From assembly GCA_011321815.1 (NCBI GenBank), contig DROS01000019.1, positions 4,118-68,117 on the forward strand: a stretch of DNA of 64,000 bases. Direction: 5' to 3'. Origin of the DNA: Gammaproteobacteria bacterium. Its GTDB lineage: Bacteria > Pseudomonadota > Gammaproteobacteria > SZUA-152. A model generated the notes under the pieces. That model saw nothing but the letters and a program-made list of their open reading frames with translations. It was not told the origin of the DNA and searched no databases. Positions 1,742 to 38,897 of this stretch are shown here, piece after piece; positions within the stretch are counted from its first letter, which is position 1; every line of letters begins with the position of its first letter. The position numbers were made by a program, and so were the translations under genes.

Positions 1742-1789
1742 TTACTTGCCTGGTTGATATGCAGAATTGGAAACATTAAAGGTGACGGG

Positions 1790-4048: not shown

Positions 4049-4079
4049 GCTTGTCCAAAACTGTAAAAAATAGAATGCA

Positions 4080-6170
4080 ATGAGAGGTTTTCGGTTTTGG
4101 TGTCAGGTGATGGGAGTATACTTCGCAGTATCTTCCCAGGTCTGGGCATTGCCAAATCAATCACTGGAAAGTATTGAATATCTGACTCATCAAGGGATGG
4201 CTGCGATAGAAATTGGTTTTGCCCAACCAGTGATTTACATGTCGAATTTTCCGCTGGAATCTGGTGCAACGCTACAAATTTTTATCGGGCCGCGCACTGC
4301 TGTGGATGTCGATGTGGATAAGCTTCCTTATACCCAGGCGATGCGCGCACCAGATTCCGGTGAGATACCGCTGCGGCAAGTGACATTCCATATTAACGAA
4401 GCCGGTGAAACCTCCATTGTTGTGGATTTTAAGCGGGTGGTGAATTTTACGATATCGGCTGGTCGTCGTTTTAACACGTTGATGATTGTTTTTCCGGAAT
4501 TGAGAATCACGCAGGCGGTACCGTTGAAAAAAGCACGTACTGTGGAGATAGTTGACAGCAAAGCTTTCAGGTTGCTGGTGTCGGGGCGCAAGGCTCTCAA
4601 GCAGCATAAAAACAAAATGGCTATTCGTATTTTTACCGGGATGCTGGAATTGCCCGAAAGCCCGGAACGACAGGAGGCAATGGAATTGTTGGGAGTGGCA
4701 CGGGAACGCAACCAGCAAAAGGCACATGCCAGGGCCATGTATCAGGAATACCTGAAGCAATACCCAAAGAGTGAAGGCGCGGCACGGGTCAAACAGCGGT
4801 TACAGGATTTATTGCATGCACAGTTAAAACCCCGGGCGAAACTGAAACCCATCAAGAAATCAAAGGACAGAAAAACTACTTCACGTATCTATGGCAGCTT
4901 TGCCCAGTATTATTATCATGGTGAAAATAGCGTTGAAAATGCCGGTAGCTCGGTGGATCAATCCTTGTTATTGAATCAATTGTCTGTTAATTGGCGTATT
5001 CGTAATGCCGACTATGATATTCGCAACTTTGTTTACACCAACCAGAGTTATGACTTTTCCAGTGAGACAGGTAAGGCAGTGACTCTGGAGACGGCGTATA
5101 GTCAATTTAAAAACAGCCGCTGGGGTTTTTCGGGTCGTGCTGGTCGGCAAACCGGCTCCGGCGGTGGCGTGTTGGGTAAGTTTGACGGATTACGCGCCAG
5201 TTATGATGCTACACGAAGAATCGCTGTGAATGCTGTGGCGGGCTATCCTGTCAATATCAGTGACAAACGCAGTATTCAATCACAAAAACCTTTTTGGGGA
5301 ATCGGCTTTGAATGGGATGGTGAGGGCAAAGGTGTTGATATCCTACCTTATTATATCCAACAGAAGGTAGATGGCATTATTGACCGTGAGGCTATTGGTA
5401 GCGAATTCAGATTTTTTCATGAACAAGGGAATTTTTACGGACTTATTGACTATGATATTCATTATGCGGACCTGAATATTTATCTTTTTCGTGGCCAATA
5501 TAATTGGCGAAAAAATACGATTTTTAACCTGAATCTTGATTATCGAAACAGCCCTTTATTGTTTACCTCTCATGCCTTGATTGGGCGTACGGATGTGTCG
5601 AGCATTGGTGAGTTACTGAATGTGCATAGTGAACGCAGTATTAATGAATTAGCAGAAAGCCGTGTGGGTGATTCAAGTACATTTTCATTGGGCGTGAGCC
5701 ATACCTTAAGTACACGTTATCAACTTAATGCAGACCTGACATTTGCCAGACAGAATTTTATCATCGACGGTGTCACGCCGGGCGTTTTAATCAGTGAGAA
5801 TGACCAGCAAATTTATTTTTCCGGTCAGCTTATTGCCAACAAATGGTTTAATGATCGTGATACCAGTGTGCTGGGTATGCGTCTCTCGCAGACCGGTAGC
5901 TATGATGAACTTTCGTTATCCGCCTCTAACCGGTTACTGTTGAACAATAAATGGAAATTCGACACCCGAATGCGCGTTGATTTACGTCAAGGTAATTCAG
6001 GTGAAGATTTAACCAGATACCGTCCTTCAGTGAAATGGAATTTCCGTCACAATCAGACGATGTATTACGAAACGGAAATTGGTGTGGAATGGTGGCGTTA
6101 TGGTGGCGATTCCAATAATCCTGATTTTCGACGGTTGTTTGCTAACGTAGGTTATCGCTGGGATTTTTGA
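4080..6170 (+). CDS. Outer-membrane beta-barrel protein of 696 aa. The N-terminal ~250 aa form a periplasmic, partly helical TPR-like region. The C-terminal part is a large beta-barrel ending in the beta-signal ...NVGYRWDF. It is a candidate porin or translocon partner of the two cytochromes.
   Basis: The signal peptide is MRGFRFWCQVMGVYFAVSSQVWA. The C-terminal 450 aa are rich in alternating aromatic/hydrophilic dyads and in Asn, Tyr and Gly. The protein ends in a terminal Phe with an x-Y-x-W-x-F pattern. The gene lies immediately downstream of the cytochromes, 32 nt away. Confidence 0.6.
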   Translation: MRGFRFWCQVMGVYFAVSSQVWALPNQSLESIEYLTHQGMAAIEIGFAQPVIYMSNFPLESGATLQIFIGPRTAVDVDVDKLPYTQAMRAPDSGEIPLRQVTFHINEAGETSIVVDFKRVVNFTISAGRRFNTLMIVFPELRITQAVPLKKARTVEIVDSKAFRLLVSGRKALKQHKNKMAIRIFTGMLELPESPERQEAMELLGVARERNQQKAHARAMYQEYLKQYPKSEGAARVKQRLQDLLHAQLKPRAKLKPIKKSKDRKTTSRIYGSFAQYYYHGENSVENAGSSVDQSLLLNQLSVNWRIRNADYDIRNFVYTNQSYDFSSETGKAVTLETAYSQFKNSRWGFSGRAGRQTGSGGGVLGKFDGLRASYDATRRIAVNAVAGYPVNISDKRSIQSQKPFWGIGFEWDGEGKGVDILPYYIQQKVDGIIDREAIGSEFRFFHEQGNFYGLIDYDIHYADLNIYLFRGQYNWRKNTIFNLNLDYRNSPLLFTSHALIGRTDVSSIGELLNVHSERSINELAESRVGDSSTFSLGVSHTLSTRYQLNADLTFARQNFIIDGVTPGVLISENDQQIYFSGQLIANKWFNDRDTSVLGMRLSQTGSYDELSLSASNRLLLNNKWKFDTRMRVDLRQGNSGEDLTRYRPSVKWNFRHNQTMYYETEIGVEWWRYGGDSNNPDFRRLFANVGYRWDF

Positions 6171-20810: not shown

Positions 20811-20893
20811 GGACCGTGCGCGTGCCTGAATGGGTATGTTTGCTCAAGGCCGGTGTAATAAATGCAAAGAACGCAAAGAAAAAATTATTTTGT

Positions 20894-22153
20894 ATGAAAT
20901 ACGAATCAAAGGTAGCGAATGTGTCACAGCCAGAGAATATGAAAGTGGGAGATAAACTCATCGGTCAGGCGCCGGATGATCGCGGTCATTTTGGTATTTA
21001 CGGCGGTAAATTCGTCGCCGAAACCCTGATGGTGCCGTTACAGGAATTGCAGGATGCCTATGAACAATACCTCACTGATCCCGACTTCATCGCTGAGCTG
21101 GATGCCGATTTACAAAACTATGTAGGCCGTCCCTCACCGTTGTATCTGGCCGAAGGCTGGACCCGTTACCTCGGCGGTGCGCAGATTTATCTCAAACGCG
21201 AAGACCTCAATCACACCGGTGCGCACAAGGTGAACAACACCATCGGCCAGGCACTGCTGGCCAAACGTTTGGGCAAAACCCGCATTATTGCCGAGACCGG
21301 TGCAGGCCAGCACGGTGTTGCCACAGCCACTGTTGCTGCGCGGCTGGGATTGAAATGCGTGATCTACATGGGCGCAGTAGACATCGCCCGACAGGCCATC
21401 AATGTTTATCGCATGAAGCTACTGGGTGCAGAAGTGGTGTCTGTAGACTCCGGCTCGAAGACACTCAAAGACGCGCTCAACGAAGCCATGCGGGACTGGG
21501 TGACCAATATCGATGATACTTTTTATATCATCGGCACTGTTGCAGGGCCGCACCCGTATCCGGCCATGGTGCGTGATTTTCAGGCCATTATTGGTCGTGA
21601 GGCACGGCAGCAGATTCAGCAGCAGGCCGGACGATTGCCGGATGCACTGATCGCTTGCGTGGGAGGGGGCTCCAATGCCATTGGTTTGTTTTATCCCTTT
21701 CTGGATGACAAGGAAGTGACTATCCATGGTGTCGAAGCGGCGGGTGACGGGCTGGACTCCGGCCGGCATGCCGCGCCACTGTGTGCCGGCCGCCCCGGTG
21801 TGCTGCATGGCAATCGGACCTATTTGATGGAAGATGACGATGGTCAGATCATCGAAACGCATTCCGTATCCGCCGGGCTGGATTACCCCGGGGTTGGCCC
21901 CGAGCATGCCTGGTTAAAAGACATTGGTCGTGCCGAGTACGTGGCTATCAACGATGATGAAGCCCTGCAAGCCTTTCACGACCTGACCCGTATCGAAGGT
22001 ATTATTCCTGCACTGGAGTCCAGCCATGCGCTGGCCTATGCCACCAAACTGGCACCCACCATGGACAAGGATCAAATTATTATCGTCAATCTTTCCGGTC
22101 GGGGTGACAAAGATATTCATACCGTGGCAGCGCTGGAAGGCATTGAGGTTTGA
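20894..22153 (+). CDS. trpB: Tryptophan synthase beta chain. The start is uncertain, either 20894 or 20939.
   Basis: A PLP-enzyme motif is present (HTGAHKVNN). The ORF track start at 20816 overlaps a repeat half-element. Confidence 0.9.
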
Positions 22154-22320
22154 ATTTGATTTTAAGTAATTACCCAGCCTGTTTTTTTAGAAGTGTGTAA
22201 CACTATCAGGCTGAGTGTTATAAACGCAAAGCCAGCGGATTACAAAATAACTTCTTGATTTGTATTTAAAAATTCAGACGGAGTTACGACTTTATAGTCA
22301 TTTATTTGATTGGGAAAAAC

Positions 22321-23124
22321 ATGAGCCGTATCAAAAACTGTTTCGACAAACTAAAAACGAAAAACCGCAAAGCACTCATTCCCTACGTGACAGCAGGCGA
22401 CCCTGACCCCGGCATCACCGTACCGCTGATGCACGCCATGGTTAGCGCTGGTGCGGACATTATCGAACTGGGTGTGCCATTTTCCGACCCCATGGCTGAC
22501 GGCCCGGTGATCCAACGCGCCGCCGAACGGGCCTTGGCACACCACGTCAGCCTGCGCGATGTGTTGGCCATGGTGGCCGAATTTCGCCAGCAGGATAACG
22601 CCACGCCCGTGGTACTCATGGGTTACCTCAACCCGGTGGAGGTGATGGGGTACGCAGTCTTTGCCGAAGCCGCCATACAGGCTGGCGTCGATGGCGTGCT
22701 TACCGTTGATTTGCCGCCCGAAGAAGCCGACGAATTGGTGGCTGCACTCAAATCACAACAACTCGACCCCATTTTCCTGCTGGCGCCCACCTCGGACGAC
22801 GAACGCATCAAGCTCATTTGCGCAGCCGCCAGCGGCTACGTTTATTACGTCGCAGTGAAAGGCGTCACTGGTGCAGGCAATCTCGATGTACGGGCGGTAG
22901 CGGACAAGCTGGCGCAGATTCGCAAACACACTGATTTGCCAGTGGGTGTCGGTTTTGGTATCAAGGATGCTGAATCAGCCGCCGCCATTGCCGCTGTAGC
23001 CGATGCTGTCGTGGCAGGCAGCGCCCTGGTGCAAAAAATAGAGCAGGCCGCTGCTCAACACGATAGAATCAAAACGGAAATTGCCGGGTTGCTGATGCAG
23101 ATGCGGGCGGGAATGGATGTATAA
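22321..23124 (+). CDS. trpA: Tryptophan synthase alpha chain.
   Basis: The N-terminus [12 protein letters not shown]...[11 protein letters not shown] fits TrpA. The gene follows trpB. Confidence 0.9.
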
Positions 23125-23213: not shown

Positions 23214-24074
23214 ATGAGCTGGCTAAAAAAACTAATCCCGTCAAGAATCAGCACCCAAAGCGGCCAGAAAAAAGCTGTGCCGGAAGGTATCTGGGCCAAA
23301 TGTACAGCGTGCAGCGCAGTATTGTATCGCGCAGAACTGGAACGCAACCTGGATGTTTGTCCCAAGTGCGACCATCATATGCGCATAGGCGCGCGTCGTC
23401 GTCTGGACATTTTTCTCGATGAAGAACCGCGCGAGGAAATCGGCGCAGAAGTCGTGCCGGTTGACGCACTTAAATTTAAAGACGTTAAAAAATATAAAGA
23501 CCGCCTGACCCAGGCACAAAAAGCCACAGGAGAGACAGATGCCCTGGTGAGTATGATGGGGCAGGTACAGGGAGTGCCGCTGGTGGCAACGGCCTTCGAA
23601 TTCAAATTCATGGGCGGTTCCATGGGCTCAGTGGTGGGCGAGCGTTTTGTGCGTGCGGTGAATACCTCCCTGGAGCACAACATTCCGCTGGTGTGTTTCT
23701 CCGCCAGCGGTGGCGCACGCATGCAGGAAGCACTGTTTTCGCTGATGCAAATGGCCAAGACCAGCGCAGCCCTGGCGAAACTCAGTAAACAGGGTATTCC
23801 GTTTGTGTCCGTGCTGACTGATCCCACCATGGGCGGGGTATCGGCCAGTCTGGCCATGCTGGGTGATGTACATATTGCCGAGCCCAAAGCGCTGATTGGT
23901 TTTGCCGGACCGAAGGTCATTGAGCAGACCGTGCGCCAAACCCTGCCGGAAGGTTTTCAACGCAGCGAGTTTTTACAGGAAAAAGGCGCGGTGGACATGG
24001 TGATTGACCGACGCGACCTGCGCGACCGTATTGCCAATTTATTGGCCATCTTAACGGGACAGCCAGCGCCTTAA
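23214..24074 (+). CDS. accD: Acetyl-CoA carboxylase carboxyltransferase beta subunit.
   Basis: An N-terminal Zn ribbon is present (CTACSAVLY...CPKCDHH), followed by a carboxyltransferase domain. Confidence 0.9.
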
Positions 24075-24149
24075 AAACAGACGTCAGGAAAACCACGGCC
24101 CAGAATCAGTCTTTACTGTTTGTTATATTTACAACCCAAACAATAAATC

Positions 24150-24455
24150 ATGACCACCGCCTCAGCCCGCGCGATCCCCGACGGCATCGACTACCATTTT
24201 GCGAAAGAATCACAGACTGTTGACGCACTGATAAACTCGCTTTACGCCAGCCCTTCCAAGCTGGCTGTTGAGCACGTCAAGGCGATTAACAGCCATCTGA
24301 AAGCCGGACAGGTTCAGGCCGGACAGCTGATGATTGTCACACCCCGAACAGCCAACAATGCAGCCGTTTCGAGGCAGATCACGAAGCGTGTACCATTGGT
24401 GCGGATTTGTCGTGTGGCAAGACCACTGCGGGTGATGTTGGAAAAAACGCGGTGA
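24150..24455 (+). CDS. Hypothetical protein of 101 aa at the edge of an AT-rich insertion.
   Basis: Only the ORF supports this call. I recognise no domain. Confidence 0.25.
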   Translation: MTTASARAIPDGIDYHFAKESQTVDALINSLYASPSKLAVEHVKAINSHLKAGQVQAGQLMIVTPRTANNAAVSRQITKRVPLVRICRVARPLRVMLEKTR

Positions 24456-25009
24456 AAGAGTGTATGACACAATCTGTCAGTGTCATCTGATGGAAATGCC
24501 AGAGTTAATACTTACCGTTATTTTTTTGGGCGTGATAACAGGAATTTTAATGATTGTGCTGCTGTTTTATATTGGCCGCACCTGCATTAAAGAAATTGAC
24601 TATGAACTTTTTATCTACTAACGACATTTACCATCCTTAGCGGATTATTCTTACCCAAGCAAAGGACCGGATAGCGATTATATTATTGTTAAGTCCTGGC
24701 GAAATTTCGGTACGGAGAAATTGTCAGTCAGCCAGTCTTTTTATAATTTACCGGTAAAACGAATTAACAAGACAGTAAACATATTGACGAAGGTCGGTGC
24801 GTTTAATGTGGCGTGGTTGTATGGCTGTCGTTTTGATGGTGAAACACCCCGATTAAAGCATAAGTGGGAATCGCATTATTTCGTGCAAGTTCTTTAGAAG
24901 CTTTCGTATTGTTTTCTGGTTTGCATGAAGCGATATGTCTATACGGTATGGGTGAATTCTTCTAGAATGCAGCTTTTAGCTTGGCTGGGCAATTTTTTGG
25001 TGCTGAACG

Positions 25010-27136
25010 ATGACTAAAATAACTGATAACAGACAATCCCCTACCAATATGGATGCCCACAAAAAAACCTCAGATTGTGATTCGTTGTTGAAACTCTGGA
25101 ATTTGCGCATTCTGACCCGGTTGAATGTATTCAACCGGTTTTTTGATCGTTATGGTGGTCTGCATGACCCGGAAACGATGCATGTTTTGGGTTTGTCAGC
25201 GTTTTTACATGACGAAAATGTTGGTAAAAAAGACATATTTTCCAATCTGTCCAATACATTAAAATCACTGGAAAGTGATACGCTGACCTCTCCCCAGGAT
25301 GTTTTTTCCGTCAATATTTCAGTTCTTCAAAAATCGTTAAATCTGACACAGTGTGAGATCGATATATTGCGGTTTGTCATCGTATCGGGTTCGTCTGCGG
25401 GGTTTAATATGGTGGTCGAGACGCTTGGGGAAATGAGCAATGAACAAATCAGGAACAGCCTGTCGATAATCCTGAATGTTCCCCGCAATGAGATTGATAA
25501 TGCCATGCGCACCAATGGTACATTGATATCTTCGGGCTTGTTGCGCATCAATACCAGTGGCCACTATATGCATTCATTGCAGCAGTGCTTTGATGTCCCA
25601 CACAGTATCAAATATGCCTTGACTCAGGAGCAGAATAATCCCGGGGCAATATTACAATGTTTTTTTAAAATGGTGGATCAGTCGCACCTGTCAATTGAAG
25701 ACTTCCCTCACTTAACAGCCGATATTGATCTATTGACATGCTATTTACAGTCAGCTGAAAAGAAAAACATTCAGGGGATTAACGTATTGATATACGGTGA
25801 ACCCGGCACAGGTAAAACCGAGCTGGTGAAAACCTTAAGCCAGTACTGCGGGTTTGAGTTATACGAAATCACCATGCAGGATATGGAAGGTAATCCCATT
25901 GATGGAAAAGACCGTTTTGCTGCTTATCAGCTGACTCAGAAAATGTTGGCCAATAAAGAAAAATCAGCCATTTTGTTTGATGAAATAGAAGATGCTTTTC
26001 CTGATGTGAATTTCAGCCCGTTTGGTCATGTGACACGCCCTGATTTCAAAAAAGCCTGGGTGCATCAATTGTTGGAGGAAAATTCAATCCCTGCATTCTG
26101 GTTGTGTAACAGTGTGGTGCAATTGGATGATTCGGTGTTACGTCGTTTTGATTTTGTTCTGAATTTACGTTCTCCCACACGTAATATCCGCCGGCGTATT
26201 CTCGACAAATACCTCGGTCACCTGAATTTGAGTGAAGCATGGTTGGCGCAAATGGCGGAACATGAGCATTTGGTGCCGGCACATGCTGAGAGCGCCGCTA
26301 AAATTGCAGCTCATCTGAATGATGGAAACACAAAGGCGCTGGAGAAAAACCTGGAAAGGATTATTGGTAATAAACTACAAGTTCTGGGATTATCCCGTAA
26401 GCCCCGCACGGTTATCAGTCGTGAAACCCGCTATAGCCTTGAGTACCTGAATCCAGACCAGGATCTGGAGGCGTTAACCAGGGGGTTGCAACAAAATCAC
26501 CAGGCACGTATTTGTCTGTATGGTGCACCAGGTACCGGAAAAACAGCTTTTGCACATTATGTTGCGGAACAGCTGGACAAACCCTTGCTTAAAAAACAGG
26601 CTTCGGACATTCTCAGCAAATGGGTGGGGGAAGCAGAACAAAATATCGCTGCCATGTTTGATGAGGCTGAGGCTGACGACATGGTGTTGCTTGTTGATGA
26701 AGTGGATAGTTTTCTGCTGGATCGCGGTTCCTCTCAGAACTCATGGGAGATCACCCAGGTTAATGAATTATTGGTTCAAATGGAAAGCTTCAATGGCGTG
26801 TTTATTGCCTCTACAAATTTACTGAATCTTGTGGATGCTGCATCGTTACGCCGTTTCGATCTGAAGATAAAATTTGACTGCATGAAGCCCCAGCAGGCGT
26901 GGGCGCTGTTTCTGCAAATATTGGAAGAGCATGGCTGTACCGTTGAGGATGAAATGAAGCACTGGAAAACAGCGCTGGCGCGGTTCGATAATCTTACGCC
27001 TGGGGATTTTGCGACAGTCGTGCGCCAGTCCCGAAGCCTGAATAAAGCGATTCACCCGCGTTATTTATTGAATGCGCTGGAAAAGGAATGCAGGGCCAAG
27101 CCGGGCGCCGGAAAATCTATCGGGTTTATGGGTTGA
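25010..27136 (+). CDS. Tandem AAA+ ATPase of 708 aa with two classical AAA modules (GEPGTGKT...ILFDEIED...RRFD, then GAPGTGKT...LLVDEVD...STN...RRFD). An N-terminal domain of ~240 aa has unknown function.
   Basis: Walker A, Walker B, sensor-1 and RRFD motifs can be read twice in the translation. The gene lies in an AT-rich insertion between accD and folC. Confidence 0.75.
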   Translation: MTKITDNRQSPTNMDAHKKTSDCDSLLKLWNLRILTRLNVFNRFFDRYGGLHDPETMHVLGLSAFLHDENVGKKDIFSNLSNTLKSLESDTLTSPQDVFSVNISVLQKSLNLTQCEIDILRFVIVSGSSAGFNMVVETLGEMSNEQIRNSLSIILNVPRNEIDNAMRTNGTLISSGLLRINTSGHYMHSLQQCFDVPHSIKYALTQEQNNPGAILQCFFKMVDQSHLSIEDFPHLTADIDLLTCYLQSAEKKNIQGINVLIYGEPGTGKTELVKTLSQYCGFELYEITMQDMEGNPIDGKDRFAAYQLTQKMLANKEKSAILFDEIEDAFPDVNFSPFGHVTRPDFKKAWVHQLLEENSIPAFWLCNSVVQLDDSVLRRFDFVLNLRSPTRNIRRRILDKYLGHLNLSEAWLAQMAEHEHLVPAHAESAAKIAAHLNDGNTKALEKNLERIIGNKLQVLGLSRKPRTVISRETRYSLEYLNPDQDLEALTRGLQQNHQARICLYGAPGTGKTAFAHYVAEQLDKPLLKKQASDILSKWVGEAEQNIAAMFDEAEADDMVLLVDEVDSFLLDRGSSQNSWEITQVNELLVQMESFNGVFIASTNLLNLVDAASLRRFDLKIKFDCMKPQQAWALFLQILEEHGCTVEDEMKHWKTALARFDNLTPGDFATVVRQSRSLNKAIHPRYLLNALEKECRAKPGAGKSIGFMG

Positions 27137-27157
27137 CAATCTGTGTTTTACGTTTAG

Positions 27158-28459
27158 ATGCGCTTTAATACCCTTAAAGACTGGTTGACGTGGCAGGAGA
27201 CGCTGCACCCCGTAGAAATTGATCTTGGGCTGGAACGGGCAAGTGCTGTGCTGACGCGGCTGAAACTTAGCCAGCCTGGTTTTACATTGATTACAGTGGC
27301 TGGAACCAATGGCAAAGGCTCCAGTGTGGCGATGCTGGAAGCTGTTTTACTTGCTGCCGGTTACCGTGTCGGCAGTTACACCTCGCCACATTTGTTGCGT
27401 TACAACGAGCGCATCAAACTTGCGGGCAAACCGGTAGATGATGCCACGCTGTGCGCGTCTTTCGAGCGTATTGATCAGGCCCGTGCAGATGTCCGTTTGA
27501 CCTACTTTGAATTTGGCACCCTTGCTGCTATTGATATTCTGCACCGTGCCGGGGTGGATGTGGCTATCCTCGAAGTGGGGCTGGGTGGACGGCTGGATGC
27601 GGTGAATATACTGGATGCCGATGTGGCATTGATCACCGCCATTGGCGTGGATCATGTGGATTGGCTGGGCGGTGACCGCGAGACCATTGCCCGTGAAAAG
27701 GCGGGCATTTTGCGTGCCGGCCAGCCAGCCGTATGTGCTGATCCGCTACCGCCGGCATCGCTGTTGTCGGTGGCGGAGTCGCTGGGGACATTGTTATCGC
27801 TGTTGGGGAAGGACTTTTTTCTTGAAAGGTTTGTCGAAAGGTCTGGTGGGCAAAAGGTTGACGGCTGGCGCTGGCGCAACTCACAGCACCGTTTTGAGAA
27901 TTTACCTCTGCCCGCTTTGCCAGGTGACTTTCAGTTGAACAATGCAGCGGGTGTACTGGCGGTATTATCATGCCTGAGAGCGGACTTCCCTGTGGATGCT
28001 GCGGCTATTGCGCGAGGTTTGCGATCAGTGTCGCTGCCAGGGCGCTTTCAAATTATACCGGGTATGCCGTTGCAGATTTTTGATGTGGCCCATAATGCTC
28101 AAAGTGCGCAGGCACTCGCCAATAATCTGCTGTGTCAGGATTGCCAGGGCCGCACATTTGCCGTGCTGGGTATGTTGGCGGACAAGGATATCGATGCCGT
28201 GGTAGAACAGCTATGCTCTGTAGTGGACCATTGGTATCTGGCGCCCTTGCCAGTACCCCGTGCGGCCCCGGTGGGGCAGTTACAGGCTGCGTTGCTGGCC
28301 AGGCCAACGGAAACCGCAACCCGCAGTGTTTCAATAGACATTTTTAATGATGTTGCCGCGGCCTATCAGGCAGCACTGGCGGCCGGTGCGGCAGAGGATC
28401 GTATTGTTGTGACTGGATCGTTTTATACAGTGGCGGCGGTGCTGGGCGAGGCAGTATAA
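27158..28459 (+). CDS. folC: Bifunctional folylpolyglutamate synthase / dihydrofolate synthase.
   Basis: The P-loop reads ITVAGTNGKGSS, placing it in the Mur-ligase family. It lies in the accD-folC-dedD-cvpA-purF order. Confidence 0.9.
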   Translation: MRFNTLKDWLTWQETLHPVEIDLGLERASAVLTRLKLSQPGFTLITVAGTNGKGSSVAMLEAVLLAAGYRVGSYTSPHLLRYNERIKLAGKPVDDATLCASFERIDQARADVRLTYFEFGTLAAIDILHRAGVDVAILEVGLGGRLDAVNILDADVALITAIGVDHVDWLGGDRETIAREKAGILRAGQPAVCADPLPPASLLSVAESLGTLLSLLGKDFFLERFVERSGGQKVDGWRWRNSQHRFENLPLPALPGDFQLNNAAGVLAVLSCLRADFPVDAAAIARGLRSVSLPGRFQIIPGMPLQIFDVAHNAQSAQALANNLLCQDCQGRTFAVLGMLADKDIDAVVEQLCSVVDHWYLAPLPVPRAAPVGQLQAALLARPTETATRSVSIDIFNDVAAAYQAALAAGAAEDRIVVTGSFYTVAAVLGEAV

Positions 28460-32630: not shown

Positions 32631-33851
32631 CTAATGCGTAGTAATGCGTGATTTGATTGCCTGCGCCATATCTGTATTGCCAATCTCTTTGTACAGTGTA
32701 GCGAGTTCAGTTAAAACGATATCTAATACAGGCTGTGTTTCACTTTTTCCATCATCGAGTATTTCGGCGGCTTTTTTATACAAGGGCAAAGCCTGCGCAA
32801 AAAGCGCGATTTTCCGCTGTGTGGTATCTGCCAGGGCGGCAGAATTATTATTGGTTGGTATGATATTGGACTCGAAAGATGTCTGATCCTGCTCTTCGAT
32901 ACGTGCCTGGGCGTGATAAATATTGGCCAGGGTATACATCAGCAATGCCAATTGCGGGTCTGATGAGCCCAGTATATGTTGCGCAATATTCAAGGCTTCT
33001 TCATAGGCATGGCTGGCAGGGCTGTATTCACCTTGTTCGAGATAGCTTGTGCCCAGACTGATGAGTGTCTGGGCAACCTCTTCATGTTGGACGCCAAAAA
33101 CAGATTTTTTGAAAACAAGCATACGTTGCAGGATGTTTATGGCTTTGTTGTGTTTTCCTTGTGCACGGTAAATGCCACTCAGATTGCTGAGTGCATTGCC
33201 GACATAAGGATGTGTAGGCCCCACACTTGCCGACCATAAGCTGATTGCCTGCTGGTAAAAAGTTGCTGCCTGTTCATATTTATGTTGGCTTTCGTACAGC
33301 ACCGCCAGATTGTAAGTTGATTGTGCAATTGCGGGATCATCTGCATGGAAGGCATTTTTGCGAATATTCAAGGCCTGTTGATGATACTTTTCAGATAGCT
33401 CGGGGCGTTGTAATTCAAAATAAACATTGCCGAGATTTGTCATGATCACCGCAAGATCGGGGTGATTTTGGCTGAGTTGCTCTTCAAGTATACGCAATGC
33501 TTCCTGTAAACGGTCTTCCGCTTTGTGCAGGTGTCCTAATGTTTGGTTGATAATGCCGAGTTTTAATAATGCATCAGCAGTATTTACATCATTTGGGCCA
33601 AAGTTCTTGTTGGCAATATCGTGAGCACGCTGGGCGGCAAAAAGCGCATTCTGGTAATCACCTTCTTCATAATAACGGATGAAATAGCTGGTCAGGTCGA
33701 TCCAAATGGTTTCAGCCAGCTCTGTTGTTTCATGGAAAGAACGAATGTTTGTTTCTTGTTCTGTTGTTGAATTAAGTGTCGGGTTGACAGAAGCAAAGAG
33801 AATGCCTGGTGCAAGCAGAAAAAAAATAAAATAAAATGTACACTGTTTCAT
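32631..33851 (-). CDS. Secreted tetratricopeptide-repeat protein.
   Basis: The signal peptide is MKQCTFYFIFFLLAPGILFASV. Repeated TPR units follow (A..Y..A..Y..G..). Confidence 0.7.
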   Translation of the reverse strand: MKQCTFYFIFFLLAPGILFASVNPTLNSTTEQETNIRSFHETTELAETIWIDLTSYFIRYYEEGDYQNALFAAQRAHDIANKNFGPNDVNTADALLKLGIINQTLGHLHKAEDRLQEALRILEEQLSQNHPDLAVIMTNLGNVYFELQRPELSEKYHQQALNIRKNAFHADDPAIAQSTYNLAVLYESQHKYEQAATFYQQAISLWSASVGPTHPYVGNALSNLSGIYRAQGKHNKAINILQRMLVFKKSVFGVQHEEVAQTLISLGTSYLEQGEYSPASHAYEEALNIAQHILGSSDPQLALLMYTLANIYHAQARIEEQDQTSFESNIIPTNNNSAALADTTQRKIALFAQALPLYKKAAEILDDGKSETQPVLDIVLTELATLYKEIGNTDMAQAIKSRITTH

Positions 33852-34301
33852 CCGCAGGTGAATGAGAGCCGGGCGTGCATATTTTTCCCAAGGGTTATAC
33901 ATTTTACTGTGCCTTTGTATCCCGGGTATAACATGTTTCGTGATTGTTAATCCGGTCAGTTTGAACGATGCCGTAAAAATGCATCGCTTATCCTGCATAT
34001 CGGCCAACGCAAGGAGCGCTTTAGCACAGCCTCTATGGCGAATGGTTGAGAGAGCGCATTAACTTTTTGATAAGGAACGTGCACGTTTCTAATACACATC
34101 ATTTCGCCTCGCCATGAAGAAAATATGGTGCACACTTATAACCTCAATCCCAAACGCTGCGGGTATATGTGGCCACTTTTAAAGCGGGAAATTATTTTTT
34201 CTGTTTATCAACAGGATAGGATGGCTATTCAGCAGGTGACAAAAATCAGGCAGGCATCTGTGTTTTGAGGTTCAATGTTCTGCGGTAGATTACGAGGTCG
34301 T

Positions 34302-37300
34302 TTATTGCGGCTTACCCGTTTCAGTGGATATTTTTTGAAGTTTGGCAAGGCTGGTTTCTGTGCGCAGCACGAGACCGTTGGCATTCTGTTGTTTGGCAAT
34401 GGCCAGGGATTCATTGAAATATTGTTCTGCAAGGCTGTGATTGTCAGCGCCGTTTTCCATGGCAAAATCACCCTTGATACGCAGTAGCTCCGCAGTAAAA
34501 AACCCCTCGCCAGTAAAAGCCGTTTCGCGCAGCGCAGACTCGATAGTCAGACGGGCTTTATCGGTTTTTCCTGCATCACGCAAAAGCTCTGCCAGAAGGG
34601 CCTGAAAATAAGAGCGGGCGAGTCGGTTACCGGATTTTTCGTAATCGCGCAGCGCTTGTTGAAACCGTTCACAAATACTGTCGGCCGGTTGTTCTGTTGA
34701 TTCCGCCCAAGCCTTCAGCATACGGCCTGTCGCTGCCCAGAATGAAAAACCATAGGTTTCACTCAGTGCTATTTGTGCATCAGCATAGCGGTAAGTCGCT
34801 TTATGGTCACCACAAAGCTGGGACAGGGTACCCATGAAATGCAGGGCATAGGCCTGACTGAATGGGTGTGCAAGGCGTTTGGCCAAATCCAGCGCGGCCT
34901 GGCCGCGCGTCAGTGCCTGGTCTGTTTTCCCAAGCAACCATAAAACGCATGCAGCATTGGCAAGAGAAGCCACCTGTGCATTCTGGCTATAGGCCACCAG
35001 TGTTGCCTGTGGGTGAGCCTGCCCGGTTTGCGGTTCGATGTGACGTTCAAGATTTTCCAATGCCTCGGAAAAATTACCTTTCCAAAAAAGCGTGGTGCCT
35101 ATGGCGCGTTTTGCTTCCAGTAAAAACTCCGGAATGTTGGATTGTGCAGCATATTGCTGTAGCTCATCGGCAAGCTTGTGTGCTTTTTCCAGCTCTGCGC
35201 GGACAATATAAAATTCCCACAAGCCACATAATACGGGAAACACAATACTGGTGTCCGTGATGTTTTGGCACAGGCTGTAAGCACGGGCATAGGCTTTTTC
35301 CACCTCGGGTGCGGCATAGCCTTTGCTCATCATGCTGGCCAGCCCCAGGGTGGTTTGCAAGGCCAGCTCGTGCCTATTTAACCCGGGTGATTCGGGCATT
35401 TTTTTAATCAGGGCGAGGCCCTTTTTGAGATGTTCGATGGCTTCAATATTGGCAGAGTGTTGAATCGCGGAATTGCCTGCGGATAACCAGTAATACAATG
35501 CATCTCCATTGTTTCCGGCTTCAGTATAATGATGGGCAAGAATCTCCGGGTTATCGGTAACAAGCTGTGGGAATTTTTCCTTGATAAGTGTGGAAATACG
35601 TTGGTGGTATTTTTGACGGGTACGCTTTAATAATGATTGATAAGCGGCTTCCCGTACCAGGGCATGCTGAAAGCGGTAATGTGCTTTGGGTGGCTTGCCG
35701 TTCTGGACAAATAATTCGGCATTGATAAGCCGGCTCATACTGGATTGCAGGTTGGGCTCACTTTGCAAAGCAGCGGCGAGCAATAGTTCGTAGGTGAATT
35801 CACGTCCCAGTGTGGCGCTTAATTGTGCCAGCTCTTTGTCATCACCGAGGTTGTCCAGGCGTGACATGAGCGAATCCTGTAGTGTGCTGGGGATTTCCAG
35901 TTGGGACATATGGTGTCCAAGCTCAAAATGATCCTCTTTTTCCACCAGCAGCGAAGACCGTAGCACGGCATTGGTCAGTTCCTCGACAAAAAAGGGAATG
36001 CCGTCTGTTTTGTTGGTGATTTCGGCAAACACTTCCAAGGGGAGCGTTTTCCCCCGGCATAGCTGCCTGATCATACTGCCTGATTGTTTTTGGGTAAGGC
36101 GATTGAGCGTAATCTGTGTCAGGCAGGTGCGATTTTTCCAGGGGGGAGCGAAGTCGTTGCGGAAGGTGATAAGGGTAAAAATGTTGCTTAGCCCAGGCTG
36201 ATCAACGAGTAATGACAACAGCTCAATAGTGGAAGGGTCTATCCATTGCAAATCCTCCACGACCAGCAACACAAAACGTTGTTGGGCGACAGCCTGTAAA
36301 ATATCAATGAGCACATCAAAGGTTTGCTGCTTTTTTTGCTGCGGAGTGGAGTTTGTTCCGGCAGCGTCGGCAATTGTTTTTCCTGGAAGGGAAATTGATA
36401 ACAGTTCAGCTAAAACAGGGGTAACTGTTTTGGGTTCCATACCCAGAGTAGCGATGGTTTTTTCGATACGCGAAATCTGTTTTTGCGGGGGATCATCTTC
36501 GGTCAGGCCGATAATGCGCCTTGCCATGTCCATAATGGGATAAAGAAAGCTGTTTTTATAGTAGAGGGCGCCATAGCAATCCAGAAAAAGACAATTTTCA
36601 TTTTCCACTTTTTCGCAAACCATCTGCACCATGCGTGTTTTTCCCAGTCCGGGTTCACCGCTGAGCAGAACAACCTGCCCAACCCCTTTGCGTGCCTGAT
36701 TGAGTCTTTCTATTAACAGACCGGTTTCCTGATCCCGTCCGATAAGCATGGCATGGGCAGGGCGTTTGGTTTTGATAAATCGGTTTTTGTTGCCACGGAT
36801 CTGTTGTACGTGAAAAAGGTTGAAAGGGTGGGAGAAGCCTTTCAACATGTGGGTACCCAGTGTTTGACATTCAAAACGCTGACCTAATAACTGATGTGTG
36901 CTGCCACTGATCACCACCGTGTTTTCACTGGCGTAGCCCTGAAGTCGTGCAGCAATATTGGGCGTTTCGCCCAAGGCCATTGAACGTGTGTCGCCACCGC
37001 CGATTTCACCGATAACCACCAGGCCGGTGTGAATGCCAATACGGACGGCAAGTTGTATGTCACCGCTTTGTTGTGTGGAGTAAACCTGTTTCGGGACATG
37101 TTTGACCATTTCCAGCGCGGCGAAGGTGGCGCGCTGTGCATCGTCTTCATGTGCGTGGGGGTAACCAAAATAAACCAGTATCCCATCACCGAGGTATTGC
37201 GCAACATAACCACCATAATCATTGACAATGTCATTGCAGGTGTTGCGGTAGTCGCGCATGATATCGCGCAGTTCTTCCGGGTCAATGCGCTCAGAAAGCG

Positions 37301-37562
37301 CAGAGGAATCGACGATGTCGCAAAACAATACGGTGAGTTGGCGACGTTCTGCATCTTGCTGCCTGAGTGTCTGTGTTGATGTAGTGTGATGATGGTCAGT
37401 CTTTTGTGTTTTGCTCAGGCGGGTGGCACATTGTCCACAGAACTCGAAATCAAATGGATTGCTAAAGCTGCAATTGGGACAAATGGTATTCAGCGGCGTG
37501 GCGCACTGCCCACAAAAGTGCATACCCTCTGGATTATTGAACCCACATTTTTCGCAGAGCAT
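34302..37562 (-). CDS. Multidomain signalling protein. It has an N-terminal double zinc ribbon, a class III adenylate/guanylate cyclase domain, a STAND/NB-ARC-like AAA ATPase and C-terminal TPR repeats.
   Basis: The zinc ribbon reads CEKCGFNNPEGMHFCGQC...CPNCSF...CGQC. The cyclase motifs are LTVLFCDIVDSSALSE and RIGIHTGLVVIGEIG. The P-loop is LLSGEPGLGKTRM. A long TPR region follows. An internal ATG at 37562 has an AGGAAA RBS. Confidence 0.8.
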   Translation of the reverse strand: MLCEKCGFNNPEGMHFCGQCATPLNTICPNCSFSNPFDFEFCGQCATRLSKTQKTDHHHTTSTQTLRQQDAERRQLTVLFCDIVDSSALSERIDPEELRDIMRDYRNTCNDIVNDYGGYVAQYLGDGILVYFGYPHAHEDDAQRATFAALEMVKHVPKQVYSTQQSGDIQLAVRIGIHTGLVVIGEIGGGDTRSMALGETPNIAARLQGYASENTVVISGSTHQLLGQRFECQTLGTHMLKGFSHPFNLFHVQQIRGNKNRFIKTKRPAHAMLIGRDQETGLLIERLNQARKGVGQVVLLSGEPGLGKTRMVQMVCEKVENENCLFLDCYGALYYKNSFLYPIMDMARRIIGLTEDDPPQKQISRIEKTIATLGMEPKTVTPVLAELLSISLPGKTIADAAGTNSTPQQKKQQTFDVLIDILQAVAQQRFVLLVVEDLQWIDPSTIELLSLLVDQPGLSNIFTLITFRNDFAPPWKNRTCLTQITLNRLTQKQSGSMIRQLCRGKTLPLEVFAEITNKTDGIPFFVEELTNAVLRSSLLVEKEDHFELGHHMSQLEIPSTLQDSLMSRLDNLGDDKELAQLSATLGREFTYELLLAAALQSEPNLQSSMSRLINAELFVQNGKPPKAHYRFQHALVREAAYQSLLKRTRQKYHQRISTLIKEKFPQLVTDNPEILAHHYTEAGNNGDALYYWLSAGNSAIQHSANIEAIEHLKKGLALIKKMPESPGLNRHELALQTTLGLASMMSKGYAAPEVEKAYARAYSLCQNITDTSIVFPVLCGLWEFYIVRAELEKAHKLADELQQYAAQSNIPEFLLEAKRAIGTTLFWKGNFSEALENLERHIEPQTGQAHPQATLVAYSQNAQVASLANAACVLWLLGKTDQALTRGQAALDLAKRLAHPFSQAYALHFMGTLSQLCGDHKATYRYADAQIALSETYGFSFWAATGRMLKAWAESTEQPADSICERFQQALRDYEKSGNRLARSYFQALLAELLRDAGKTDKARLTIESALRETAFTGEGFFTAELLRIKGDFAMENGADNHSLAEQYFNESLAIAKQQNANGLVLRTETSLAKLQKISTETGKPQ

Positions 37563-37661
37563 GGCAGAATTTTCCTGGTTTGCCGGTATATGCGGAAGGA
37601 GGATACCCATCCCCTCTGTGTTCAGCAAGGCGAGTGGATAAAGAATAAAACAGGAGAAAAC

Positions 37662-38897
37662 ATGAGTTTGGCCCGTAAGCACCTTTTACAAATTTATCAA
37701 GCCGCATTAGCGGCCGTACAGGGGGGCGATTGCACGCAACGGGCGTTGTCGGGCTATGATCCGGGTGGGCCGGTTGCGGTGATTGCCATGGGCAAGGCAG
37801 CGTCGAGCATGATGCAGGGTGCAATGGTGATACTGGGGGACGCTTTTGATGAAGGGCTGTTGATCACCAAGGAAGGGCATTGTGATACGTCGCTACAAGG
37901 CATAGAAAATATCCGGTGCCTGGAATCAGCACACCCTGTGCCGGATCAACGCAGTTTGTATGCCGGCCAAACCCTGTTGGAATTTATAGCTGCACAATCG
38001 GTGCAACATGATTTTATCTTTTTGATTTCCGGTGGTACCTCTTCGCTGGTGGAGATATTGCCGGATGGGTTATGTCTGGAGGATTTGCGTAAAGTAAACC
38101 AATGGTTGCTAGGTAGTGGTTTGAATATCACCGCGATGAATTGTGTGCGCAAATCGCTGTCGTGTATCAAGGGGGGACGCCTGGCGCAGCGGCTTGTGGG
38201 ACGTCACGTAAACTGCCTGATGATTTCCGATGTGCCGGATAATTCACCGCACGTGATTGGCTCGGGTTTTTTGAGCCCGGATAACAGTGACAGATCACAA
38301 CCTGACGATATACCGGAGTGGATTAAAAAATTGCCCAAGGCCCCACCTGCGCCTTTGTTGGGCGATACTTGTTTCGATACGATTGATGTGCGTGTCATTG
38401 CAAAACTTGAAGATGCTATGCAGGCCGCAAAAAAAGAGGCAGTGGCTTTGGGGTATGAGGTTTATTTACATGAGGCGTTAATCACAGGTGATGCACAGCT
38501 TGCAGGGCAGCAGTTGGCCCATGCCTTGTGCAATGGCGAATCCGGTTTGCATATCTGGGGCGGGGAAACAACAGTGTGTTTGCCAGACAACCCTGGATAT
38601 GGTGGCCGCAATCAGCAGTTAGCATTGGCAGCCGCAGTAGAATTGAGCGGCATGGAAGAATGTTATTTTTTAGCCGCAGGCACTGATGGTAGTGATGGGC
38701 CGACAGAAGCTGCCGGTGCTTTGGTGGGCGGGGATACTCTTCAACGCGGGGCACAGGCCGGGTTTGATGTGCAACAAGCACTGGCCGCGGCAAATGCGGG
38801 TGGGTTCTTGCAGGCCAGCGATGACTTGGTCATCACCGGGCCCACAGGCACCAATGTGATGGATTTGATTCTGGCCATCAAATTGCCGACGGCATGA
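37662..38897 (+). CDS. Glycerate kinase of the MOFRL / glycerate-2-kinase (TtuD-like) family.
   Basis: The motif DFIFLISGGTSSLVE is present. The ATG at 37662 is preceded by AGGAGA. The ORF-track ORF extends upstream, antisense to the neighbouring gene. Confidence 0.75.
   Translation: MSLARKHLLQIYQAALAAVQGGDCTQRALSGYDPGGPVAVIAMGKAASSMMQGAMVILGDAFDEGLLITKEGHCDTSLQGIENIRCLESAHPVPDQRSLYAGQTLLEFIAAQSVQHDFIFLISGGTSSLVEILPDGLCLEDLRKVNQWLLGSGLNITAMNCVRKSLSCIKGGRLAQRLVGRHVNCLMISDVPDNSPHVIGSGFLSPDNSDRSQPDDIPEWIKKLPKAPPAPLLGDTCFDTIDVRVIAKLEDAMQAAKKEAVALGYEVYLHEALITGDAQLAGQQLAHALCNGESGLHIWGGETTVCLPDNPGYGGRNQQLALAAAVELSGMEECYFLAAGTDGSDGPTEAAGALVGGDTLQRGAQAGFDVQQALAAANAGGFLQASDDLVITGPTGTNVMDLILAIKLPTA

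Follow-up and report, generated by a model that had tools for sequence, protein, structure and literature searches.

A predicted tandem AAA+ ATPase in an old insertion between accD and folC of a gammaproteobacterial genome, and its possible links to conflict systems

What AAA+ unfoldases do in proteolysis and disaggregation is understood, while their roles in bacterial conflict systems, as represented by IetA, DolB, Cap6/TRIP13, and the CoCoNuT ATPases, are mostly unexplained. IetA is the AAA antitoxin of IetS (PMC13069673). In type III-A CoCoNuT, a SpoVK-type tandem AAA protein stands beside a bacteriocin-like glycine-zipper protein within a defence locus (Bell et al. 2024, PMC11090510). BrxR/CapW-type WYL factors, in turn, relieve the repression of defence genes on sensing single-stranded DNA or signals derived from nucleotides (PMC9122601, PMC11662680). 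Here, we examined a gene for a 708-amino-acid (aa) AAA+ ATPase that lies between accD and folC in a 64,000-nucleotide (nt) stretch of contig DROS01000019.1, from a Gammaproteobacteria bacterium (GenBank assembly GCA_011321815.1). This whole stretch is called the window throughout. An earlier note, made from the sequence alone, had proposed that the gene forms part of a defence or stress islet. The analysis points to an ancient islet carrying a putative Cdc48-like protein remodeller, whose most probable role is linked to stress or infection and directed against phages or other mobile elements; we judge the chances of this reading to be about even.

All genes of the surrounding region are encoded on the + strand, in the order trpB (20816–22153), trpA (22306–23124), accD (23214–24074), a gap, the 708-aa open reading frame (ORF; 25010–27136), folC (27158–28459), a SPOR/dedD-like gene, cvpA, and purF. 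The identities of accD and folC are backed by Pfam. The insert between accD and folC comprises ~3 kb of DNA with a GC content of 0.444, against 0.55 in the flanks, and both its position and its AT-richness had been given accurately by the earlier note. Across 24250–27249, 500-nt windows had GC contents of 0.38–0.48, with 0.53–0.60 on either side. The insert lies 2.2 standard deviations under the mean of 3-kb windows and ranks second from the bottom across the 64 kb, after the stretch at 3.8–7.8 kb (GC 0.43). In every relative, the ATPase gene itself has a GC content of 0.43–0.47 and the flanks one of 0.54–0.56. Its synonymous codon usage was not atypical: by distance in relative synonymous codon usage (RSCU), the gene ranked 35th of 40 genes, with a GC content at third codon positions (GC3) of 0.477, the sixth lowest. 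The tetranucleotide profile of the insert fell outside the most deviant windows of the stretch. Given the ordinary RSCU, the AT-richness of the gene stems largely from its amino-acid composition.

Loci of relatives (designated by L-numbers) were found via folC homologues of graded identity. Two related lineages have an empty accD–folC junction. In L099, folC (74% identical) follows accD after a gap of 168 nt, and in L100, folC (69% identical) follows after 290 nt; the synteny is otherwise the same in both (fimV, truA, trpF, trpB, trpA, accD, folC, dedD, cvpA, purF). These empty junctions demonstrate that the window segment is a true insertion, and they bear out the earlier note, which had held that accD and folC are normally adjacent. 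Every closer lineage examined (L010–13, L014, L015–17, L018–20, and L098) was in the occupied state, consisting of accD, a variable spacer, the ATPase gene, and folC. The ATPase is found at the accD–folC junction in at least seven related lineages of metagenome-assembled genomes (MAGs).

We then considered the limits of the insert. Its left edge is ill-defined, at ~24100, within the intergenic DNA that follows the accD stop codon (24075–24149, + strand), and in alignments of occupied against empty sites, similarity persisted only ~30 nt past that stop codon. On the right, the ATPase stop codon and the folC start are separated by a spacer of 21 nt (27137–27157, + strand), which measures 18 nt in all other occupied loci. 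At the empty sites, the ~20 nt that precede folC are homologous to this spacer, and the insert therefore ends at the ATPase stop codon. A leader of ~110 nt immediately upstream of the ATPase start (24900–25009, + strand) is conserved, with 85% identity to L010–13 across 107 nt and nine loci aligned. It is presumed to contain the promoter and ribosome-binding site, and it has a small hairpin and a T-run just before the ATG. No integrase or transposase was present among the ORFs of the islet, and direct and inverted repeats at its boundaries were limited to short, chance-level matches with no att-like pair. A tRNA search of the window found none, and Rfam gave no match at its E-value threshold over 22–29 kb. 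Scans for sigma-70 consensus promoters and for terminators returned no more matches than were obtained in shuffled sequence.

The insertion is old, stably inherited, and fixed across the clade. Nei–Gojobori estimates against seven relatives gave a ratio of nonsynonymous to synonymous substitution (dN/dS) of 0.06–0.11 for the ATPase gene, in the range of trpA and purF, and the gene is under strong purifying selection. Its synonymous divergence (dS) was 0.61–0.97, with values of 0.5–1.0 for the flanking trpA, accD, folC, cvpA, and purF. As the dS of the gene equals that of its flanks, the gene has been inherited together with them throughout the divergence of these lineages. The islet of the earlier note is therefore a genuine insertion, but not a recent one, given its fixation, its flank-like dS, its low dN/dS, and its lack of mobility genes and terminal repeats.

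Next, we examined the domain anatomy of the ATPase. Two PF00004 modules were detected in the 708-aa ORF (Pfam, E 4.9e-41). The D1 module and its helical lid (~aa 246–477; 25745–26440, + strand) match Pfam AAA/AAA_5 and carry Walker A GEPGTGKT, Walker B ILFDEIED, and the motif LRRFD. The D2 module, with its lid and tail (~aa 478–708; 26441–27136, + strand), matches PF00004 at aa 501–623 and carries Walker A GAPGTGKT, Walker B LLVDEVDS, the pore loop SKWVGE, LRRFD, and the lid motif LTPGDFATV. In a conservation alignment of 35 homologues, reaching down to 35% identity, the invariant residues were G263, G266, G268, K269, D324, E325, N367, R378, and R379 in D1 and G505, G508, G510, K511, D563, E564, R614, and R615 in D2. 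The sensor-1 Asn, both RRF arginine pairs, LTPGDFATV, and the C-terminal IGF were also kept. An aromatic-hydrophobic-Gly pore loop 1 is present in D2 (SKWVGE), with no canonical motif in D1. Of the two complete AAA modules claimed by the earlier note, both have Walker A and B and RRF, but D1 has no canonical pore loop. The full-chain AlphaFold2 (AF2) model had a pLDDT of 81.9 and showed two alpha/beta cores with lids; the invariant IGF tail is disordered in it. With this full model, Foldseek retrieved Cdc48, p97, Rix7, NVL, and Drg1 over 530–590 columns (E ~1e-18, 16–20% identity), and phmmer against the Protein Data Bank (PDB) aligned D2 only, most closely with Cdc48/VAT (E 1e-28). Transmembrane (TM) prediction found no TM segment in the ATPase. 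Judged by its motifs and predicted fold, the 708-aa protein is a type II (tandem D1–D2) classical AAA+ ATPase.

The N-domain (aa 1–245; 25010–25744, + strand) is family-specific. Its AF2 model was all-helical (pLDDT 80.6, pTM 0.73), with residues 1–22 disordered. These N-terminal ~245 aa had no match in Pfam even at E 10 and none below E 0.07 against PDB sequences, and a Foldseek search of the model gave nothing at E<1 in the PDB and nothing at E<0.2 among the viral structures of BFVD. The domain had already been called unassigned in the earlier note, and it stays so after these searches. It is not of the Cdc48 type (double-psi barrel plus beta-clam), and we presume it to be a substrate- or adaptor-recognition domain. 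With Cdc48/p97/VAT, Rix7/NVL, and Drg1/AFG2, the window ATPase shares the tandem D1–D2 arrangement, intact nucleotide sites, and an aromatic D2 pore loop. It differs from this group in having a helical, unmatched N-domain where the group has a double-psi-barrel CDC48_N, a D1 without a pore loop, a short, RRF-type arginine-finger region, and an IGF C-terminus in place of HbYX. Unlike these proteins, it is also encoded by a patchily distributed bacterial accessory gene.

Among defence profiles, IetA was the top match in both PADLOC and NCBIfam. The PADLOC match reached 140 bits, over aa 496–674 (D2) only; the NCBIfam model IteA_antiphage scored 119.8 bits against a cut-off of 510 bits. The two proteins have the same SpoVK-like, RRF-type AAA module, and IetA also occurs in mobile or defence contexts. 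IetA, however, is a protein of ~370 aa with a single AAA module, to which the N-domain and D1 of the window ATPase are unrelated. No ORF for the IetS subtilisin-like protease was present in the islet, and no peptidase occurred among the recurrent neighbour families of ~90 related loci. We rejected an assignment as IetA on the basis of the score far under the cut-off, the coverage of D2 only, and the missing IetS. The CoCoNuT ATPases, compared by description, have Walker motifs in the C-terminal module only, along with C-terminal LRR and beta-barrel fusions, and, unlike type III-A CoCoNuT loci, the window contains no McrBC or CoCoNuT gene. No Clp/Hsp100 family was prominent among the Pfam matches of the ATPase, with AAA_2 falling below the cut-off. 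A Pvc15-like ATPase of extracellular contractile injection systems (eCIS/PVC) and ClpV of the T6SS (type VI secretion system) were also dropped, neither having been put to a direct test: the genes recorded near the ~90 ATPase loci included none for a sheath, tube, or baseplate.

We then determined the size and spread of the family. A profile of the N-domain recovered 2,373 clusters at 50% identity with E≤1e-3, and 1,587 with E≤1e-10. The match was always N-terminal, in full-length proteins of ~690–720 aa. Since the N-domain consistently occupies this position in proteins of ~700 aa, it and the tandem AAA core constitute one fixed architecture. The family is large and unnamed, and the source annotation reads only "AAA family ATPase" or "SpoVK/Ycf46/Vps4 family." At least 559 family loci were found in species-representative genomes. 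Family members occur in Gamma-, Beta-, Delta-, and Zetaproteobacteria, Campylobacterota, Myxococcota, and Nitrospirae, as well as in one cyanobacterium, one chlamydia, and one Bacteroidota genome. Distant homologues are patchily distributed over chromosomes and plasmids, with plasmid homologues in cultured Pantoea, Pseudomonas luteola, Methylomonas, and Rhodoferax. At times, a genome holds two family members (L041 and L050; L077 and L097): these adjoin in L041 (810 and 673 aa), whereas in one deltaproteobacterial MAG, JACRCX01, they are found on separate contigs.

To place the family in its genomic context, we compared neighbourhoods at increasing distance from the window. Relatives at 40–54% identity carry the gene alone amid unrelated housekeeping genes, at varied positions. 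For homologues at 35–40% identity, we sampled 68 loci with usable flanks. A WYL(-WCX) regulator lay within 3 kb of the ATPase gene in 23 of these 68 distant loci (34%), at a median gap of 84 nt, and was mostly placed either divergently upstream or co-directionally just downstream. Nine of the 68 had a DUF2779 Cas4-like/RNase H-like protein, and both assignments were confirmed with Pfam. This adjacency resembles that of defence genes regulated by BrxR/CapW-type WYL factors. No WYL gene was found in the window or in its close relatives.

Plasmid loci illustrate these neighbourhoods. On a Sphaerotilus plasmid, BREX-2 PglZ/BrxD share a region with the run WYL–ATPase–Sir2–DUF4804–phosphatase, which is followed further on by MoxR; the phosphatase near plasmid homologues is a DSP phosphatase. 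A Methylomonas plasmid has ATPase–RtcB and, at some distance, PD-(D/E)XK–HTH–WYL, while a Pantoea plasmid has the ATPase and WYL genes, two hypothetical genes, and SNF2. On a Rhodoferax plasmid, a macro-domain gene precedes, at a distance, the run ATPase–DUF2779–WYL, a hypothetical gene, PLD, and a helicase. In at least six loci (L041, L046, L052, L107 of Pantoea pPAT9B03, L108 of MT835507, and L109 of the Rhodoferax plasmid), a block of SNF2, PLD, and an unassigned protein of ~404–441 aa adjoins a block of the ATPase, in part with DUF2779, and WYL. The two blocks may together form one larger undescribed multi-gene system. Flanking proteins matched by PADLOC include a type I methylase, DpdF, PsyrT, and PDC-S26. 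NCBIfam and Pfam gave no match for the 398-aa neighbour of homologue P0020. The counts of defence- and conflict-type neighbours are raw counts and are suggestive rather than a statistical enrichment.

A single full-length homologue was found in the phage collection, in GenBank record MT835507.1 (L108), which is labelled "UNVERIFIED: Bacteriophage sp." The genes around it encode SNF2, PLD, WYL, Sir2, and an AddB-like nuclease. We did not accept a phage origin from this record, as these neighbours resemble a defence island of bacterial or plasmid origin. ARG-centred anti-ADP-ribosylation systems (PMC9503650) likewise have WYL, phosphatase, Sir2, and macro neighbours; this ATPase is not listed in that paper, and we treat the likeness as a lead only.

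The DNA between accD and the ATPase gene was examined by clustering the ORFs of ~100 loci and by mapping the window spacer onto the intact genes of relatives with tblastn. The earlier note had listed a 101-aa ORF and a possible 43-aa TM peptide here; the alignments identify them as pseudogene fragments. The 101-aa ORF (24150–24455, + strand) is a pseudogene of a ~341-aa glycine-zipper effector-like protein. Positions 24156–24374 match the effector N-terminus (residues 16–86 of the 300-aa protein of L018, 71% identity, E 2e-26), and positions 24380–24445, in another frame, carry a fragment of the effector C-terminus, EACTIGADLSCGKTTAG (82% identity, E 1e-7), after an internal deletion and a frameshift. 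The 43-aa TM peptide (24490–24621, + strand) corresponds to the truncated N-terminal half of a two-TM, immunity-like partner of ~96–120 aa, matching the 96-aa protein of L019 at E 1e-8. A third segment (24640–24897, + strand), which includes a 58-aa ORF (24721–24897), is the C-terminal remnant of a gene for a four-TM protein of 430–436 aa; within it, 24640–24858 match residues 354–426 of the 430-aa protein of L020 (75% identity, E 5e-28). By these alignments, the 101-aa, 43-aa, and 58-aa ORFs are pseudogene fragments and would encode no function in this genome.

The same region is differently preserved in the relatives. L018 retains a 300-aa protein after accD. In L019, an effector C-terminus precedes a TM protein of 118 aa; next come a C-terminus of an orphan effector, a TM protein of 96 aa, the membrane protein (436 aa), and finally the ATPase. 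In L020 and L098, the ATPase is accompanied by the 430-aa membrane protein only, and the membrane-protein gene is thus intact directly upstream of the ATPase gene in L019, L020, and L098. L014, L010, and L015 have other deletions. As the deletions differ from relative to relative and the ATPase gene is intact in each, the cassette decays independently in each lineage. Neither Pfam nor NCBIfam gave a match for the effector, its partner, or the 430-aa membrane protein, and the last of these had no match against plasmids.

The effector family is small, with 38 matches of typically 341 aa, no Pfam domain, and a glycine zipper as its C-terminus; where intact, the partner always directly follows the effector. 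Intact effectors with a 118–120-aa partner occur without the ATPase at four places: in the assembly that also contains L020, with uvrB and glgP on either side; in a T6SS cluster, adjoining tssM/tssL/tssK/tssJ/FHA; beside a TPS-domain protein; and beside a giant protein. Over effector residues 34–340, the match is to the last 305 aa of a PAAR-domain protein encoded on Yersinia pseudotuberculosis p_153kb (WP_011988534; 30% identity, E 5e-37). The two have the glycine-zipper C-terminus in common, and each has a small TM partner directly after it, which in Yersinia is a 128-aa neighbour. The window-type family differs in having no PAAR N-terminus, and in the window it is broken into fragments. This homology suggests that the cassette is an orphan T6SS-type membrane-targeting effector/immunity pair, probably once delivered by a T6SS. 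More distant effector homologues (26% identity, E 2e-9 to 3e-11) were observed on 60–73-kb plasmids of Vibrio parahaemolyticus (e.g., NZ_CP114199.1, 53945–55291). These amount to 69 Vibrio plasmid records, many of them from shrimp isolates, each with a 128-aa partner and annotated as hypothetical only.

One ATPase of 86% identity, P0008, is encoded at a different locus, with the order mreBCD–pbp2–rodA–[mltB remnant]–ATPase, followed after further genes by mltB–rlpA–dacA. In a neighbour-joining tree, this copy nests within the accD–folC clade, and the final ~40 nt of the ATPase leader are retained at the mltB site. Judging by this copy, the gene is still able to move. The empty site L100 and one of the mltB-site contigs derive from one metagenome and probably belong to one organism. 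At the mltB site (L001–L003, 5673–10300), the ATPase gene is preceded by a 100-aa mltB remnant made up of the first 12 aa and the last ~85 aa of a divergent allele, and is followed by genes for a LysM protein, two TM proteins (one Gly-rich and of 220 aa, the other of 159 aa), and an orphan C-terminus/TM pair, with an intact mltB after these. This arrangement suggests arrival by recombination with foreign flanks. BLAST homology between the effector cassettes of the accD and mltB sites was not significant (E 0.23), the architecture alone being common to them. In several close relatives, a second variable insert of two genes lies between trpA and accD (L014 1929–3140, 212 and 174 aa; L015 3673–4580, 141 and 161 aa; L098 860–1999, 190 and 166 aa). 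Its proteins have no Pfam match, and the insert is missing from the window, where the trpA–accD gap is 90 nt.

We can postulate how the locus arose and works. A composite islet would have entered the accD–folC junction a single time, in the ancestor of this clade of uncultured Gammaproteobacteria, and would have been inherited vertically since. Its sole functional gene would encode the soluble ATPase, which, by homology to Cdc48/p97, would form a hexameric, ATP-driven protein unfoldase or remodeller. Threading would be driven by D2, which has the KWVG pore loop, and D1 would be a nucleotide-binding assembly or regulatory ring, while the helical N-domain would select the substrate or adaptor. 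More speculatively, a partner could bind to the IGF tail, which is invariant and disordered. The gene would have its own promoter in the ~110-nt leader, with read-through into folC 21 nt on making co-transcription probable, and in the window clade it would operate without a regulator. The DNA between accD and the ATPase gene would be the eroded rest of a T6SS-type effector/immunity pair and a membrane-protein gene. The patchy, plasmid-borne, and WYL-linked distribution of the family argues for a conflict- or stress-induced role. This defence or stress function is drawn from the neighbourhoods of the 35–40%-identical homologues and not from the window locus, and is plausible but unproven.

For the defence or stress role proposed by the earlier note, the homologues in neighbourhoods with WYL, BREX, SNF2 and PLD, Sir2, RtcB, and DUF2779 lend support. 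Several observations weigh on the other side. No defence model of PADLOC or NCBIfam claims the ATPase, and its matches to IetA, DolB, and TRIP13 are partial. The window clade and the 40–54%-identical relatives have housekeeping surroundings, with neither WYL nor any defence neighbour. WYL regulators are themselves common in defence islands, and part of the adjacency may be due to neighbouring systems, such as SNF2 with PLD, rather than to the ATPase. Finally, long vertical retention, housekeeping-like constraint, and ordinary codon usage would be equally expected of a domesticated chaperone. A stronger version of the proposal, which we consider possible but doubtful, is that the whole family is an unrecognized, single-protein, WYL-controlled immune or conflict effector. 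In it, a Cdc48-like unfoldase would recognize, through its N-domain, either a protein of an invader or a host protein that is damaged or modified, and would dismantle this target, and the window copy would be a regulator-less one captured in the accD–folC operon.

Were the ATPase such a domesticated chaperone, it would be retained for its present service to the cell, in protein quality control or in assembling or disassembling a host complex, and might drive the expression of folC as well; conflict would not be among its roles. The trpA- and purF-like dN/dS, flank-like dS, ordinary RSCU, and absence of mobility genes all fit this account, as do the constant 18–21-nt spacer to the essential folC in all occupied loci and the survival of an intact ATPase gene beside a decaying cassette. 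We nevertheless consider it unlikely, since the gene is absent from the accD–folC junction of the next-closest lineages, has been relocated to the mltB locus in one copy, is of low GC in every relative, and belongs to a family that is elsewhere patchy, plasmid-borne, and WYL-linked. The earlier note had named conservation at the locus across the order, together with housekeeping-like codon usage, or an N-domain matching a housekeeping function as findings on which the islet idea would fail. Codon usage is indeed ordinary, but conservation at the locus is confined to the clade, and the N-domain matches no housekeeping adaptor.

Alternatively, the ATPase could work with the glycine-zipper cassette and the 430-aa membrane protein, loading, exporting, or extracting the membrane toxin, or serving as an ATP-driven, IetA-like immunity or antitoxin factor; the window would then contain a dead system of which one part survives. 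CoCoNuT (PMC11090510) and IetA/IetS (PMC13069673) offer precedents. The ATPase is also found side by side with glycine-zipper arrays at two independent sites, upstream of it at accD–folC and downstream at mltB (the E 0.23 between the arrays being not significant), and the membrane-protein gene is intact directly upstream in the three relatives listed above. However, intact effector and partner pairs exist without the ATPase (at uvrB–glgP in the L020 assembly, in the T6SS cluster, and at two further loci), the homology of the effector to PAAR-fused proteins points to T6SS delivery, and the cassette occurs in 0 of the 68 distant ATPase loci. The ATPase is moreover strongly constrained where the cassette is dead, and we regard such a partnership as quite improbable. 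It is highly improbable, in our view, that the gene is a solitary selfish or addiction-type element, or the orphaned antitoxin-like half of a lost two-gene module, that persists through its position before folC. The best profile match is an antitoxin ATPase, IetA; in the 40–54%-identical relatives, the gene is inserted by itself at many unrelated places in the chromosome; and its close junction with an essential gene could protect it against deletion. Yet positional hitch-hiking would not hold dN/dS at 0.06–0.11 over 708 codons or keep both ATP sites invariant, and a protease or toxin partner was present in none of the ~90 loci.

Two other features of the window were observed. At 107–6170 there are two multihaem c-type cytochromes (Cytochrome_C7/c3), of which the second has an MtrC/MtrF-like domain, and after them a 696-aa ORF without a Pfam match; they fall in the other low-GC stretch and may be an extracellular electron-transfer cluster. 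At 32631–37682 (− strand), a 1126-aa protein with a double zinc ribbon, an adenylate/guanylate cyclase domain, AAA_16/STAND, and TPR adjoins a 458-aa TPR protein, and the pair is conserved in relatives, downstream of purF/metZ.

For annotation, the two small ORFs of the window between accD and the ATPase gene should be called pseudogene fragments. The locus shows an accessory gene that has long been fixed inside a housekeeping operon while the neighbouring effector/immunity cargo decays. The ATPase family, which lies outside defence databases and curated families, is a testable candidate.

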